From Escherichia coli (GTDB lineage Bacteria; Pseudomonadota; Gammaproteobacteria; Enterobacterales; Enterobacteriaceae), in assembly GCF_003334335.1 (NCBI RefSeq), contig NZ_QOWQ01000049.1: a stretch of 30,887 nt of DNA; one strand, 5' to 3'. A program made the translations under genes and the position numbers. Positions 3,279 through 26,994 of this stretch are shown in pieces (the stretch's first letter is position 1; every line of letters begins with the position of its first letter). The notes under the pieces were generated by a model. The model saw only the letters and a program-made list of their open reading frames with translations, made no database searches and was not told where the DNA came from.

Positions 3279-4600
3279 CGCGACAGTTTTGCCAATAGCG
3301 TTTTGCGCGTGATCCCTAACTGACGGGCGGCTTCGGTTTTGTTGCCGCCCGTTTTCTCCAGCGCCGCCAGAATCACCTCTTTTTCCACTTCCACCAACGG
3401 CTGAATATCCTGACTTTGTCCCAGCGGGATCGGCGTACTGGCAATCGCCAGCGGCAGCTCGCGTTCGGAAATATATTCCCCGGTCAGCAGCACCACTGCC
3501 CGTTCCACCGCGTTTTCCAGCTCACGAATATTTCCCGGCCAGTCGTAATGAATCAACAGATCCATCGCCTGGGGCGTAAAACCTTTTACCGCCTTGCGAT
3601 TACGCTCGGCAAAGCGCTGCAGAAAATGGCCAGCCAGCAGAGGGATATCTTCCCGCCGTTGCCGCAGCGATGGTACTTCAATCGCCACCACATTCAGGCG
3701 ATAGTAGAGATCCTGGCGAAAACGCCCGGCATTCACCTCTGCGGCAAGATCGCGATGGGTCGCCGCAATCAGCCGGACATCAACCGAGATAATCTGGTTG
3801 CTACCGACACGCTGAACTTCGCGCTCCTGAATCGCACGCAGCAGACGCACCTGCATCATCGGCGAGATATCGCCAATTTCATCGAGAAACAGCGTGCCGC
3901 CGTCCGCCTCAACAAAGCGCCCTTCCCGGCGTTTATCGGCTCCAGTAAACGCCCCTTTTTCGTGACCGAACAATTCAGATTCCAGCAAGGATTCGTTGAG
4001 TGCCGCACAGTTGAGCGTTACCAGCGGTTTTTCGCTACGTGCGCTACTGGCGTGAATCGCCCTGGCGACCAGCTCTTTACCGGTGCCGGAATCGCCGTGG
4101 ATCAGTACCGTGGCTTCCGATGGCGCGACGAGGGCGATTTCACTGAGCAGGTGTTGCATCGCCGGGCTTTTACCGACCATACCGAACTGGCTGGCAGTCA
4201 CCGCAGGTGTTTCAGCATCAATACTGTGCGTATGCGCGAGCGCTTTTTCCAGCGTCGCCTGTAGGTTATCGAAATCCAGCGGCTTGATGAGATAATCCAG
4301 CGCCCCAGTTTTCAGTGCCTCTACCGCCGTCTCGACGCTGGAGTACGCAGTCATAATCAGCACCGGAATTGCCGGGTTTAACGCTTTGATCTCTTTCAGC
4401 GTGGCGATGCCGTCCATCTCCGCCATTCGCACATCGCAAAGCACAAGATCAAAAACCTGTTCCCGCACCTGCTCCAACGCCTGTCGCCCGCTGTTCGCCA
4501 GCGCGACGTTATAGCCCCAGCCGCGCAGTAAAGCCTGCAAAATAGTGCAGTGGCTAATGTCATCATCCACCACCAGAATATCGATATTATCGTGCGTCAT
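3275..4600 (-). CDS. zraR: Sigma54-dependent response regulator (receiver domain, AAA+ sigma54-activator domain with GAFTGA motif, C-terminal HTH)
   Basis: 441-codon ORF; NtrC-family architecture with GDSGTGKE Walker A, GAFTGA and Fis-type HTH. ATGA start/stop overlap with the upstream kinase gene. Confidence 0.95.
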
Positions 4601-11622: not shown

Positions 11623-11650
11623 GCCCCATTTGCGGGGCTAATTTCTTGTC
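11623..11650 (+). terminator. Intrinsic terminator downstream of rsd
   Basis: 5-bp GC stem GCCCC/GGGGC with ATTTGC loop, followed by the T-rich tract TAATTTCTTGTC. Confidence 0.6.
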
Positions 11651-11735
11651 GGAGTGCCTTAACTGGCTGAGACCGTTTATTCGGGATCCGCGGAACCTGA
11701 TCAGGCTAATACCTGCGAAGGGAACAAGAGTTAAT
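11651..11735 (+). promoter_or_regulatory. TPP riboswitch (THI element) in the thiC leader
   Basis: Contains the conserved thi-box core CTGAGA (11667..11672) and the downstream AACCTGATCAGGCTAATACCTGCGAAGGGAAC segment, about 90 nt upstream of the thiC ATG. Confidence 0.85.
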
Positions 11736-11817
11736 CTGCTATCGCATCGCCCCTGCGGCGATCGTCTCTTGCTTCATCCGTCGTCTGACAAGCCACGTCC
11801 TTAACTTTTTGGAATGA

Positions 11818-15284: not shown

Positions 15285-16055
15285 ATGTTACGTATTGCGG
15301 ACAAAACGTTTGATTCACATCTGTTTACCGGCACAGGGAAATTCGCTTCTTCACAACTGATGGTGGAGGCGATCCGCGCTTCCGGCAGCCAGCTGGTGAC
15401 ACTGGCGATGAAACGTGTCGACTTGCGCCAGCACAACGACGCTATCCTCGAACCGCTTATCGCGGCGGGTGTGACCCTGCTGCCAAATACATCCGGGGCG
15501 AAAACAGCGGAAGAAGCCATTTTCGCCGCCCATCTGGCTCGTGAAGCGTTAGGCACAAACTGGTTAAAATTAGAGATTCACCCTGACGCCCGCTGGCTGT
15601 TGCCCGATCCCATCGAAACCCTGAAAGCCGCCGAAACGCTGGTACAACAGGGATTTGTCGTGCTGCCTTACTGCGGGGCCGATCCGGTATTGTGTAAACG
15701 TCTGGAAGAAGTCGGCTGTGCAGCGGTGATGCCGCTCGGCGCGCCGATTGGCTCGAATCAGGGACTGGAAACCCGCGCCATGCTGGAGATTATTATCCAG
15801 CAGGCCACAGTGCCGGTGGTTGTCGATGCTGGCATCGGCGTTCCCAGCCATGCCGCGCAGGCGCTGGAAATGGGGGCCGACGCGGTGTTAGTGAATACGG
15901 CGATTGCCGTCGCGGACGATCCCGTCAACATGGCGAAGGCATTTCGTCTGGCGGTAGAAGCAGGCCTACTGGCACGTCAGTCCGGACCGGGCAGCCGCAG
16001 TTATTTTGCTCATGCCACCAGCCCGCTGACCGGATTTCTGGAGGCATCGGCATGA
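15285..16055 (+). CDS. thiG: Thiazole synthase
   Basis: True start [20 protein letters not shown] at 15285 (256 aa), one nt after the thiS stop. The 342-aa track ORF is an upstream over-extension through thiF and thiS. Confidence 0.93.
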
Positions 16056-17185
16056 AAACCTTCAGCGATCGCTGGCGACAACTGGACTGGGACGACATCC
16101 GCCTGCGTATCAACGGCAAAACGGCTGCTGACGTAGAGCGGGCGCTAAATGCCTCGCAACTCACCCGCGACGACATGATGGCGCTGTTATCGCCTGCCGC
16201 CAGTGGCTATCTGGAACAACTGGCACAACGGGCGCAGCGTCTGACCCGTCAGCGATTTGGCAACACAGTTAGTTTCTACGTCCCGCTTTATCTTTCCAAT
16301 CTTTGCGCTAACGACTGCACGTACTGTGGATTTTCCATGAGTAATCGCATCAAGCGCAAAACGCTGGATGAAGCGGATATTGCCAGGGAAAGTGCCGCTA
16401 TACGGGAGATGGGCTTTGAACATCTGCTGTTAGTCACTGGTGAACATCAGGCGAAAGTGGGGATGGATTACTTTCGTCGTCATCTCCCTGCCCTTCGTGA
16501 ACAGTTCTCTTCACTACAGATGGAAGTGCAACCGCTGGCGGAGACGGAATACGCCGAGTTAAAGCAACTTGGTCTGGATGGCGTGATGGTTTATCAGGAG
16601 ACATATCACGAGGCGACTTATGCCCGCCATCATCTGAAAGGCAAAAAACAGGACTTCTTCTGGCGGCTGGAAACGCCGGATCGGCTGGGGCGTGCGGGGA
16701 TTGATAAGATAGGCCTCGGCGCGCTAATTGGCCTTTCCGACAACTGGCGCGTTGACAGCTATATGGTTGCCGAACATTTGCTATGGCTGCAACAGCATTA
16801 CTGGCAAAGCCGTTACTCTGTCTCCTTTCCGCGCCTGCGCCCGTGTACTGGCGGCATTGAGCCTGCGTCGATTATGGATGAACGCCAGTTAGTGCAAACC
16901 ATCTGCGCCTTCCGACTGCTTGCACCGGAGATTGAACTGTCACTCTCCACGCGGGAATCACCGTGGTTTCGCGATCGCGTTATTCCGCTGGCGATCAATA
17001 ACGTCAGCGCCTTCTCGAAAACGCAGCCAGGTGGCTATGCCGATAATCACCCCGAGTTGGAACAGTTCTCACCGCACGACGATCGCAGACCGGAAGCGGT
17101 TGCTGCCGCGTTAACCGCTCAGGGTTTGCAGCCGGTATGGAAAGACTGGGACAGCTATCTGGGACGCGCCTCGCAAAGACTATGA
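16052..17185 (+). CDS. thiH: 2-iminoacetate synthase (tyrosine lyase, radical SAM)
   Basis: 377-codon ORF with the radical-SAM CANDCTYC motif; ATGA overlap with the thiG stop. Confidence 0.95.
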
Positions 17186-17439
17186 GACGGAATGTAAGAA
17201 CGTAAATTTATTCCGAGCCGCTACGGAAGATGAAAAACGCAAGGTTGTTGAAAGCGTTGTGTTTTTTTATGGTAGTGCCGTCAGCAGGAATGTTGTCCAG
17301 GGCGAAAAGCTTCTTCCTCGTTTCGCCCTGCCTTTCTTAAAAATTCCGTAATGCAAAGTCTGAAGCCATCGCCTGTTGAGCAATGAAAGAGATCTGATTG
17401 TAAGAGAGTAAATACTCAACTATGATAGAGACGAAAATA

Positions 17440-17601
17440 AGAACACATGTTCTCATCTTCCAGGATGCAGCAGACTGAAGAAATTCAGACATCCCGCAAC
17501 CTGCGATTATCGCAAGGTCAAGGCAAAGTCCGGTAATGGCGTTCTGAATACCAGAGATAATTCTCTGGCGAAACCCACCTTAAGGTGGGTTTTGTTATTT
17601 T
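17440..17601 (+). ncRNA. sroH: Candidate small RNA at the 3' end of the thi transcript region (position matches the sRNA sroH reported between thiH and htrC in E. coli K-12); 5' end not determinable from sequence
   Basis: Two consecutive hairpins (CCAGAGA-TAAT-TCTCTGG at 17551..17568, then AAACCCACC-TTAA-GGTGGGTTT at 17571..17592) followed by TTTTGTTATTTT; the 3' end is well defined. The 5' boundary and the identity are from memory of the K-12 locus. Confidence 0.4.
17571..17601 (+). terminator. Strong intrinsic terminator (9-bp perfect stem, TTAA loop, T-rich tail)
   Basis: AAACCCACC TTAA GGTGGGTTT followed by TGTTATTTT, read directly. It is a good terminator only on the plus strand; on the minus strand the hairpin is followed by CGCC. 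Confidence 0.8.
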
Positions 17602-18134
17602 GAGGGCTGAGGAAGCTGCTTATTTCTCAATAAGTTGTAGGCAATGGTGAAAAATTTCACTGATTTACCTTTCTGTTTTTCAGAAATGGGATAAGCGCTA
17701 GTTACATGCAAACGGAGTTTTTTCTTTTCCCTGAAAGCCCTGAACGCAACAAAGTAAAATGCCTTATCTCCTCCGTCTAAGTCCACCTCAATCACGGCAT
17801 AGCTACCATACCCGGCATGAATAACGTTGCTTTCTGGCAGCGCCAAAATAGTTCTTTTTAAGTGTGTGCGCGCTAAGTTATAACGGTGCTGGCAGAAGGG
17901 ACGAGATTCTTTAGGCGCGTGGTACATTAACGATTGTTTTTCTTCGTTCGTCTGATGTTCATAATCTTTTGTGAAGCAGTGAAGAGAGTAGGTAACCCAA
18001 AAGCGATACTCTAAAGGCTCTTTGCCCTCATGATGCTGAACGTAGACAGCCTGATGAGCATCAAGAAATGATAAATCACGAATATCACCATCCGGATGTC
18101 CAAAAGGTCGCCACTTTTCCACTTCCTGTTTCAT
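17595..18134 (-). CDS. htrC: Heat-shock protein HtrC (YjaZ)
   Basis: 179-codon ORF in the conserved position between rpoC and thiH; translation (MKQEVEKWRPFGHPDGDIRDL...) recalled as YjaZ/HtrC. Identity is by synteny and memory, not domain logic. Confidence 0.8.
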   Translation of the reverse strand: MKQEVEKWRPFGHPDGDIRDLSFLDAHQAVYVQHHEGKEPLEYRFWVTYSLHCFTKDYEHQTNEEKQSLMYHAPKESRPFCQHRYNLARTHLKRTILALPESNVIHAGYGSYAVIEVDLDGGDKAFYFVAFRAFREKKKLRLHVTSAYPISEKQKGKSVKFFTIAYNLLRNKQLPQPSK

Positions 18135-18300
18135 TCTCGTTCCTTAAGAAAGTTACACAGGAATAGTATCGAATCCTTGCCGAGTTTGACTCAATTAGTT
18201 CAGTCAGTTTCAGGATATTAGTCATCTCTACATTGATTATGAGTATTCAGAAATTCCTTAAATATTCTGACAAATGCTCTTTCCCTAAACTCCCCCCATA

Positions 18301-18325
18301 AAAAAACCCGCCGAAGCGGGTTTTT
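18301..18325 (-). terminator. rpoC intrinsic terminator (hairpin flanked by A-run and T-run, potentially bidirectional)
   Basis: AAAAAACCCGC CGAA GCGGGTTTTT about 25 nt downstream of the rpoC stop; on the minus strand the stem is followed by UUUUUUAU. Confidence 0.85.
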
Positions 18326-18346
18326 ACGTTATTTGCGGATTAACGA

Positions 18347-26920: not shown

Positions 26921-26954
26921 GCGCAAAAAGGCTGGTGACTAAAAAGTCACCAGC
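26921..26954 (-). terminator. rplL-rpoB intergenic attenuator (partial terminator)
   Basis: Perfect 9-bp inverted repeat GCTGGTGAC-TAAAAA-GTCACCAGC (26931..26954) which on the minus strand is followed by CUUUUUGCGCU; lies 41 to 64 nt downstream of the rplL stop. Confidence 0.75.
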
Positions 26955-26994
26955 CATCAGCCTGATTTCTCAGGCTGCAACCGGAAGGGTTGGC

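Follow-up and report, generated by a model that had tools for sequence, protein, structure and literature searches.

We analyzed a 30,887-nucleotide (nt) stretch of Escherichia coli DNA (contig NZ_QOWQ01000049.1 of assembly GCF_003334335.1; hereafter the window), in which the gene of the small RNA (sRNA) SroH lies between thiH and yjaZ (htrC). We found that sroH and yjaZ make up a compact, accessory and horizontally mobile two-gene module without any third conserved gene, and we regard the pairing of SroH with YjaZ as highly probable. The sroH gene itself is already known (Rfam sroH), and SroH is said to be an E. coli K-12 sRNA that came out of an RNomics screen of 2003. The searchable literature regards it as an enterobacterial orphan sRNA with no function assigned, never mentions sroH together with yjaZ or htrC and makes no mention of PF27200, the family to which YjaZ belongs. 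SroH appears to be the first known member of a class of pseudoknotted, deeply conserved RNAs that is strictly coupled to YjaZ and apparently undescribed until now. A first-pass annotation of the window had stated that sroH was reported at this locus and that its function was uncharacterized; it was right on both points, as seen from a full-length match to RF00372 and from PMC5389530 and PMC6172242. The two genes of the module are as follows:

17433–17600 (+): SroH RNA gene (Rfam match 17433–17593, U-tract to about 17600)
17595–18134 (−): yjaZ (htrC), 179 amino acids (aa), PF27200/NF007263, convergent with sroH

Pairing of SroH With YjaZ Across Plasmids and Phyla

The Rfam covariance model RF00372 (sroH), with a curated gathering score of 80 bits, matched positions 17433–17593 of the plus strand over its whole length (model positions 1–161 of 161) with 201.1 bits (E = 1e-49), which places this segment within the family. 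The stop codon of yjaZ overlaps the U-tract of SroH (TTA at 17595–17597, TAA on the minus strand). Searched sensitively at the DNA level, 72,556 plasmids yielded 103 matches that begin inside sroH (around 17457–17462) and continue through yjaZ. The plasmid contexts were mutually unrelated (ColRNAI plasmids, P1-like phage-plasmids with the module among tail genes, an IncF plasmid and Serratia plasmids). In all five such contexts the Rfam sroH model scored 99–144 bits, and the RNA was always convergent with yjaZ and ended at its stop codon. The module was the only cargo of 2,462-bp ColRNAI plasmids of E. coli and Klebsiella, nothing else being annotated bar an 84-nt (27-codon) hypothetical open reading frame (ORF) by the RNAI gene. 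The ColE1-type plasmid pJX12-2 of K. pneumoniae (L003; 2,462 bp) has RNAI at 909–1011 and, as its only substantial cargo, a yjaZ homologue and an sroH-like RNA; E. coli has plasmids of identical size, and contigs of about 2–2.4 kb are the source of many YjaZ clusters.

Taking one genome per species, 100,044 species gave 62 YjaZ loci. An SroH-type RNA was present at 58 of them, the other four being partial matches at contig ends, and the RNA was convergent with yjaZ at 57 of these 58. We used two covariance models, R1, built from six enterobacterial RNAs, and a second model, R2, which scored 164.8 and 136.2 bits, respectively, on positions 17458–17600 of the window. R1 gave a full-length match of 46–162 bits in 40 of the 62 loci, including Aeromonas, Pseudomonas lundensis, Marinomonas, Ferrimonas, Psychrobacter, Lonepinella, Methylococcaceae, Woeseiaceae and more than 20 cyanobacterial genomes. 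These matches lay opposite to yjaZ, directly behind its stop codon (for L035, see below). The 18 further loci, with a YjaZ that is 26–37% identical, all carried a divergent RNA (group 2) of the same architecture in the same place; they belong to Pseudomonas, Pantoea, Enterobacter (a paralogue), Vibrio, Pseudoalteromonas, Thalassotalea and Thermosynechococcus. The two RNA groups were linked statistically by R2 (e.g., E = 2.5e-5 for locus L061). Some of the taxon labels rest on metagenome bins (e.g., “Streptococcus” and “Rubrobacter”) and should be treated cautiously.

The RNA was also carried by all 13 extra loci obtained from protein look-ups and IMG/VR viral contigs. Four very distant YjaZ homologues had, at the corresponding place, an RNA of about 125 nt with a promoter and a terminator, and three of these loci gave weak, correctly placed model hits (E about 0.004–0.005). 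The RNA and the protein have split in parallel into at least two matching subgroups, probably three. The RNAs of these four distant loci (L088, L090, L091 and L092) look like a third, more divergent type, with a P1 helix of the form AAUCG...CGAUU, a P2 helix closed by ACC and GGU, their own promoter and a terminator U-tract overlapping the stop codon (helix names are given in the next section). The only locus with the RNA upstream of yjaZ on the same strand was L035, from a Thiomargarita metagenome-assembled genome (RNA at 3636–3865, yjaZ at 4001–4522, both on the plus strand). Its P1a helix has an insertion of about 100 nt and its layout is that of a canonical type III toxin-antitoxin system, an assembly artifact being possible.

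The Rfam sroH threshold missed the copies of cyanobacteria, Aeromonas, Pseudomonas and Marinomonas; 15 of the 16 non-enterobacterial loci tested fell below it, only L037 passing with 81.7 bits, and no other family of Rfam 15 covered the non-enterobacterial copies. In the E. coli genomes listed (hits H106–H117), RefSeq/PGAP annotates no feature under the sroH match, despite the existence of the Rfam model. In cyanobacteria, the pair of RNA and yjaZ forms a lone islet between housekeeping genes. tRNA genes were observed about 260–390 nt upstream of the yjaZ homologue in Aeromonas eucrenophila (L014, 3535–3616) and Enterobacter cancerogenus (L062, 3662–3743), which is consistent with the insertion of an island beside a tRNA.

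Structure and Conservation of SroH

The conserved core of SroH spans 132 nt (17463–17594) and is proposed to fold into helices P1/P1a, P2, P3 and P4, the terminator P5 and a 4-bp pseudoknot, all on the plus strand:

17463–17467 (GGAUG) with 17490–17494 (CAUCC) (+): P1, enclosing the conserved CAGCAGA internal loop (17468–17474) and P1a
17475–17479 with 17484–17488 (+): P1a hairpin with a GAAA loop; all four P1a pairs covary
17471–17474 (CAGA) with 17543–17546 (UCUG) (+): pseudoknot, 99.4% of cells paired
17499–17518 (+): P2 (17499–17506 with 17510–17518), a hairpin of variable length with an invariant ACC...GGU closing
17519–17550 (+): joining region CAAGG-(P3)-GGUAAUGGCGUUCUGAAUA, including the 3′ strand of the pseudoknot (17543–17546)
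17522–17531 (+): P3 mini-hairpin (17522–17523 with 17530–17531), in the conserved joining region
17551–17557 with 17562–17568 (+): P4 hairpin (CCAGAGA/UCUCUGG), 7 of 7 pairs changed on both sides
17569–17579 with 17584–17594 (+): P5, predicted intrinsic terminator followed by a U-tract to 17600; 7 of 11 pairs covary

The Rfam sroH model, in contrast to this multi-helix pseudoknotted fold, is nearly structureless, only the terminator being annotated; it could be rebuilt with the proposed structure. We tested the structure on a 45-sequence alignment, where it paired 98.0% of 1,647 cells versus 84.3% in shuffles and 34–49% with the partners slid, the counts leaning towards the model for P1a, the P2 base, P4 and P5, to which the alignment had been fitted. 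Changes on both sides were found at 22 of the 37 pairs. P1 is absent from model R1 and yet covaries, GC being replaced by AU in four sequences at one pair and AU by GC in three at another (variants GAGUG:CACUC, GAAUG:CAUUC and, in group 2, GGGUG:CACCC). The pseudoknot, which is not in the model either, showed the compensatory variants CCGA:UCGG (L040) and CGGA:UCCG (L043), and in group 2 it was CAGG:CCUG in 16 sequences and CAGA:UCUG in one. The P2 stem varies in length and sequence among copies while its pairing is kept (the pair of columns 78–112 is AU, UA, CG, GC or UG). Five helices and the pseudoknot are supported by covariation.

Conservation extends well beyond the paired positions. Among 44 RNAs, 66 of the 119 well-occupied columns had one base in at least 90% of the sequences, and the RNAs of E. 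coli and cyanobacteria were 71% identical overall, versus 45–51% for the proteins. A G·U pair of P5 (columns 196–234) was kept in 44 of the 45 sequences; this conserved wobble, together with the promoter and the U-tract, designates the plus strand as the RNA strand. A role at the DNA level (recombination site or origin) is unlikely, given the same wobble, the promoter and the terminator.

Several other candidate features were tried and rejected. A long-range pairing AGGAUGC/GCGUUCU proposed by RNAalifold was dropped for the local P1 and the pseudoknot, which show compensatory changes. A hammerhead-like reading of CUGAAUA-P4-CGAAA-P5 failed, with U at the G8 position in all copies, no partner for stem I and no match to an Rfam ribozyme. 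Hidden peptides were considered in the form of plus-strand ORFs of 36, 30 and 29 aa, which had no PHROG match; within the RNA, no reading frame survives the insertions and deletions in P1a, P2 and P4, which excludes a peptide-coding reading. A 51-aa hydrophobic ORF on the minus strand (17337–17492), antisense to the 5′ end of SroH, was considered as a type I toxin. It had no PHROG match, and the region left of about 17457, which covers nearly all of this ORF, is not conserved outside E. coli, the aligned upstream sequences being unrelated.

The YjaZ Protein

YjaZ matched the NCBIfam family NF007263 (“YjaZ”) along residues 1–179 with 430 bits (cut-off 324), and PF27200 (YjaZ) is precomputed on its homologues. 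Proteins about 50% identical occur in Aeromonas, Oceanimonas, Thiothrix-like bacteria and many cyanobacteria. Searches against local Pfam-A, PHROGs, PADLOC and PDB sequences gave no match. AFDB50 contains 157 family members from many phyla, all unannotated, and an exhaustive profile search recovered 710 clusters, essentially all single-domain proteins of about 175–190 aa, among which we found no informative domain fusion. The original designation of “heat shock protein C” (HtrC) has been retracted (PMC11551758).

The AlphaFold2 model of YjaZ (pLDDT 90.6, pTM 0.87) is that of a soluble two-part alpha/beta protein. Nearly all of its best fold matches, which are weak, were RelE/ParE-type proteins (HigB2, RelE, YoeB, ParE, and BrnT) and BECR-fold CdiA-CT nucleases. 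The invariant or near-invariant residues E136, K138, R141, H143, and Y148 lie on two adjacent strands, and this cluster of Lys, Arg, His, Tyr and Glu on adjacent beta-strands may be a further point of likeness to RelE/ParE toxins and BECR-fold CdiA-CT. In contrast to RelE/ParE-type proteins, YjaZ showed no profile similarity to them (hhalign), is twice their size with an extra N-terminal domain and has no protein antitoxin gene adjoining its own. YjaZ may be a nuclease-like effector of small size that stands alone and has a core like that of RelE/ParE.

An Accessory 0.92-kb Segment in E. coli

In a census of 5,426 complete E. coli genomes, the module was present in 3,741 (69%) and absent from 1,685 (31%). 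Alignment of occupied and empty sites delimited it as follows:

17347–18256 (no strand): accessory sroH and yjaZ module, an indel of about 0.92 kb (921 bp from the start of one flanking repeat to that of the other)
17336–17346 (no strand): left imperfect 11-nt direct repeat CTTAAAAATTC, at the left junction
18257–18267 (no strand): right imperfect direct repeat CTTAAATATTC, at the right junction

The repeat bracketing the segment has the form CTTAAA(A/T)ATTC, and the segment may have originated by insertion with target duplication or, conversely, its absence by deletion between the repeats. On the right, the adjoining 25–30 nt share about 75% identity between haplotypes with and without the segment, a divergence far above that of the flanks. 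All of the E. coli genomes have the thiH-proximal part of the spacer, the alignment breaking at about 17349 in the roughly 1,685 module-free ones. Since sroH was found in 3,740 genomes and yjaZ in 3,738, the two genes have been gained or lost together. sroH had already been scored absent from phylogroups B2, D and some other strains (Skippington and Ragan, PMC3318445). The module is single-copy (a median of one place per genome), with no sign of self-mobility.

sroH was at least 99% identical in 3,734 of 3,742 E. coli records, and yjaZ only 95–99% identical in 795 of 3,738. Within E. coli, the SroH RNA is more constrained than the yjaZ coding sequence. O157:H7 strains (L081, 3021–3464; hits H102–H104 and H145–H146) have an internal deletion of about 70 bp in yjaZ, leaving a 147-aa “protein HtrC,” and the adjacent sroH is 100% intact. 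In E. coli ET650 (hit H66), an IS1 family transposase splits the match to the module. Upstream of the E. coli yjaZ, at 18187–18212 and 18243–18252, we also noted sequences resembling the P1a region of SroH and its UUCUGAAUAC motif. These SroH-like motifs (two inverted repeats) are not conserved at other loci and are probably due to chance.

The sroH Transcription Unit

A consensus scan placed a sigma-70-type promoter directly before sroH:

17398–17426 (+): predicted sroH promoter (−35 TTGTAA at 17398–17403, 17-nt spacer, −10 TATGAT at 17421–17426)

This promoter ends 7 nt upstream of the Rfam start, with which the predicted transcription start near 17433 coincides. The −35 and −10 boxes were kept at the same position in the plasmid copies, where the surrounding sequence is unrelated, and most of the 45 homologues had near-consensus TTGACA/TATAAT boxes a few nt before the first helix, again in unrelated genomic contexts. 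Positions 17433–17457 form a 5′ leader restricted to the E. coli chromosomal and P1-like lineages.

At the other end, the first-pass annotation had pointed to a strong double hairpin with a T-run, and it is indeed there (17551–17568 plus 17569–17594, T-run to 17600). Its folding energy was −28.5 kcal/mol (z = −8.5) and none of 200 shuffles folded as well. A simple terminator scan did not report the site at 17551–17600. We gave little weight to this omission because the stem covaries in 45 homologues; its position is given both by the Rfam sroH consensus and by our alignment. Judged from these signals, sroH has the promoter and the intrinsic terminator expected of an independent sRNA gene, and a polyadenylated SroH primary transcript has been described by Maes et al. 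(PMC5389530). We therefore consider SroH as a most likely independently transcribed, structured RNA of about 165 nt. The proposal of a discrete plus-strand sRNA ending at a strong terminator thus stood, while its length was revised from about 250 nt to about 161–168 nt (17433 to about 17600).

Possible Functions of the SroH-YjaZ Module

The known type III antitoxin RNAs are tandem repeats of 34–36 nt; they are transcribed from the strand that also encodes the toxin, ahead of its gene, and the toxin processes them. Known type III toxins have the ToxN/AbiQ (Kid/MazF-like) fold. The SroH-YjaZ module resembles these systems (ToxIN, CptIN, and TenpIN) in being a two-component pair of an RNA and a protein, in the pseudoknotted RNA that would be made in excess and in the small stand-alone protein that is predicted to be nuclease-like. 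It is also, like them, plasmid-borne, patchy between strains and spread across phyla by transfer. By analogy, it would work most like a type III RNA-protein module, outside any described family. We tentatively favor the reading in which SroH serves YjaZ as its RNA partner, the two following a type III-like logic of toxin-antitoxin, abortive infection or addiction, as a possibility that falls somewhat short of being probable.

SroH, as an abundant RNA transcribed from a near-consensus promoter, would bind its partner protein YjaZ and either restrain or load this effector. With their 3′ ends tightly fused, the two genes would stay together in inheritance, and yjaZ may in addition be controlled by antisense action or transcription collision. 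A physical interaction of YjaZ with SroH is suggested by their co-inheritance and co-divergence. YjaZ could be toxic or act in defense and be neutralized by direct binding of SroH. A logic of this kind is favored by the presence of the module as sole cargo of cryptic 2-kb plasmids, by the near-consensus promoters of the RNA and by the possibly toxin-like fold of the protein, as well as by the patchiness of the module among strains and its decay (the O157 deletion, the IS1 insertion and many truncated alleles).

Four observations speak against it. Firstly, unlike in type III systems, there are no repeats and the genes are convergent: SroH consists of one unit of about 135 nt that faces the protein gene convergently at 57 of the 58 loci (L035 excepted), and no tandem repeats were found in 17186–18346. 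The module consequently does not fall in type III by repeat RNA and same-strand layout, nor does it by toxin family (ToxN/AbiQ/CptN/TenpN), YjaZ having no PADLOC, PHROG or Pfam-A match and weak fold matches to RelE/ParE-type proteins, not ToxN. Secondly, a K-12 sroH deletion is reported to be viable and sensitive only to envelope stress (cited in PMC5389530). This fits poorly with a simple antitoxin, except if yjaZ is weakly expressed or the deletion also harmed its 3′ end. Thirdly, conservation of the unpaired nucleotides of SroH far exceeds that of the protein (about 50% identity); they could serve contacts with a universal cellular component, or catalysis, instead of a private protein contact. 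Finally, the module is nearly absent from phages: none of 50,697 GenBank phage records matched it by DNA or protein, and it was carried by only six IMG/VR contigs, two of which are P1-like phage-plasmids. A phage origin of the module was rejected on the same counts.

A more specific proposal, that the module represents an unrecognized class in which a single pseudoknotted RNA of about 135 nt gates a RelE-like effector, i.e., a new type of RNA antitoxin or abortive-infection system that differs from the ToxIN type by its toxin fold, RNA architecture and gene layout, is in our opinion rather doubtful. In this proposal, the near-invariant core of the RNA may mimic or contact a universal target such as the ribosome or a tRNA. 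If the toxin-antitoxin or defense reading is true, it would amount to a new architecture for RNA-based toxin control. In any case, two long-standing unknowns of E. coli K-12, SroH and YjaZ, can now be joined in one directly testable hypothesis of binding, antidote or cofactor.

The convergent layout itself suggests another explanation, namely that SroH controls yjaZ in cis as an antisense RNA, through transcription collision and pairing or degradation at the 3′ ends. In a variant of it, read-through transcripts of yjaZ that are antisense to SroH would pair with it and be degraded, as in type I pairs overlapping at their 3′ ends. At 57 of the 58 loci the convergent RNA is joined to the stop codon of yjaZ, the sroH promoters are near consensus and, on the yjaZ strand, the terminator hairpin is followed only by UUUCGCC, so that transcription of yjaZ may continue into the stretch antisense to sroH. 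The module is indeed reminiscent of the Bacillus subtilis type I systems txpA/RatA and bsrG/SR4, which also combine a convergent sRNA with a strong promoter and a protein gene overlapping it at the 3′ end. However, complementarity comes for free with opposite strands, and it leaves unexplained the invariant core, the pseudoknot and the covarying helices outside the overlap. L035, with its RNA upstream of yjaZ on the same strand, does not fit either. We also looked for antisense pairing of the RNA core to the translation start of yjaZ and rejected it, no conserved pairing with the ribosome-binding region being found (mean z of 0.08 over 24 loci). Type I toxins are short hydrophobic peptides of the membrane, whereas YjaZ is a 179-aa protein that is predicted to be soluble and well folded, and in SroH the conserved stretch, which is not part of the overlap, evolves under the constraint of an RNA fold; we therefore rejected the type I class as well. 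Antisense control through the fused 3′ ends, which alone leaves the conserved fold unexplained, is a serious partial alternative, or an addition, to a type III-like logic, and we consider it unlikely as the explanation of the module.

We give a comparably low probability to a ribonucleoprotein without any poison or antidote, SroH being a scaffold, guide, decoy or substrate of YjaZ, for instance in an enzyme guided or activated by RNA, in the repair or modification of RNA or in a sensor. The evidence from co-inheritance and co-divergence applies equally to it. The extreme conservation of unpaired RNA positions, the cited viability of the sroH deletion and the single-domain nature of the YjaZ family, which matched no known defense or toxin profile, also fit this explanation. 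Strict coupling of a structured RNA to one protein family over a wide taxonomic range is known from Y RNA/Rsr, omega-RNA/TnpB/IscB and the IS110 bridge RNA. YjaZ differs from these proteins in having no recognizable transposase, recombinase or Ro-like fold, and the module differs from such elements in being single-copy and showing no sign of self-mobility in E. coli. No catalytic or nucleic acid-guided domain can be recognized in YjaZ, and being the sole cargo of 2-kb plasmids, patchy and prone to decay is more typical of addiction or defense genes.

It is much less probable that SroH is an ordinary trans-acting base-pairing sRNA, acting for example on the kbl mRNA and possibly with Hfq, whose adjacency to yjaZ would be incidental hitch-hiking. 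SroH did bind the kbl mRNA in a gel-shift assay following a computational prediction (PMC6172242), it was enriched in Hfq PAR-CLIP (bioRxiv 10.1101/2020.06.29.178624), and the envelope-stress phenotype of the sroH mutant, as cited in PMC5389530, would also fit. The authors of the PAR-CLIP study, however, state that SroH is not an established Hfq target. Moreover, SroH is conserved beside yjaZ in cyanobacteria, Pseudomonas and Marinomonas, which share no chromosomal targets with E. coli, and it is missing from 31% of E. coli. In the covariation model, nearly the whole RNA is engaged in covarying helices and the pseudoknot, with few unpaired stretches and no free seed.

Lower still is the probability that we assign to a riboswitch-like sensor, in which a small ligand bound by the core would act on the terminator of SroH itself and so adjust antisense read-through into yjaZ. 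The pseudoknotted core directly before the terminator does have a conservation of riboswitch grade. An upstream 6-mer matching the 3′ strand of the terminator was found in 3 of 45 RNAs versus 4.2 expected by chance, and no anti-terminator was evident although the terminator sequence changes among lineages. No sense-strand gene lies downstream, where the sequence is antisense to yjaZ, the L035 element would have the opposite regulatory sign, and neither SroH nor the tested homologues matched an Rfam riboswitch family. With the anti-terminator signal at chance and no target on the same strand, SroH was not assigned to the transcription-terminating riboswitches.

The End of the thi Operon and Neighboring Features

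Three features lie outside the module, on either side of it:

16052–17185 (+): thiH (ORF including the stop codon; its RefSeq matches are annotated thiH), last gene of thiCEFSGH
17298–17340 (+): hairpin (inverted repeat, arms 17298–17307 and 17321–17330) and T-rich tail
18302–18325 (no strand): bidirectional rpoC terminator hairpin (terminator scan and inverted repeat), found directly after the thiH hairpin region in module-free genomes

According to the ORF list, thiH ends at 17185, as had been annotated in the first pass, and the spacer between thiH and yjaZ (17186–17594) does measure 409 bp. The weaker hairpin with a T-rich tail that had been noticed in it was recovered as well: its arms CAGGGCGAAA and TTTCGCCCTG are followed by TGCCTTTCTT, and positions 17298–17330 fold with −15.0 kcal/mol (z = −3.5 versus shuffles). 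Module-free E. coli keep thiH and this hairpin; in one such genome (L001), the rpoC terminator comes about 45 nt after the thiH hairpin and both sroH and yjaZ are missing. The suggestion that this hairpin is the first stop of the operon is plausible; it is kept in genomes devoid of sroH, and 17298–17340 is probably the first terminator of the thi operon.

The initial view that SroH is processed from, or terminated within, the 3′ untranslated region (UTR) of thiH as an output of the thi operon is hardly tenable: SroH and thiH are on the same strand and read-through past a hairpin of moderate strength is plausible, but SroH has its own conserved promoter and is reported to be a primary transcript (PMC5389530), 1,685 E. 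coli genomes have an intact thiH without SroH, and every homologue elsewhere adjoins yjaZ, never thiH. The class of 3′-UTR-derived sRNAs, characterized by co-inheritance with the upstream gene and the lack of a conserved promoter of their own, was discarded for SroH on these grounds. Read-through past the thiH hairpin may still add some SroH transcript without defining the RNA, and sroH should not be treated in annotations as a product of the thi operon.

Two further matches to Rfam families were observed in the window. A TPP riboswitch (RF00059, 74.8 bits) is located at 11640–11740 (+) in the leader of thiC, upstream of thiCEFSGH. A match to P26 (“Pseudomonas sRNA P26,” RF00630, 74.5 bits) lies at 26929–26990 (−), downstream of the rpoBC region.

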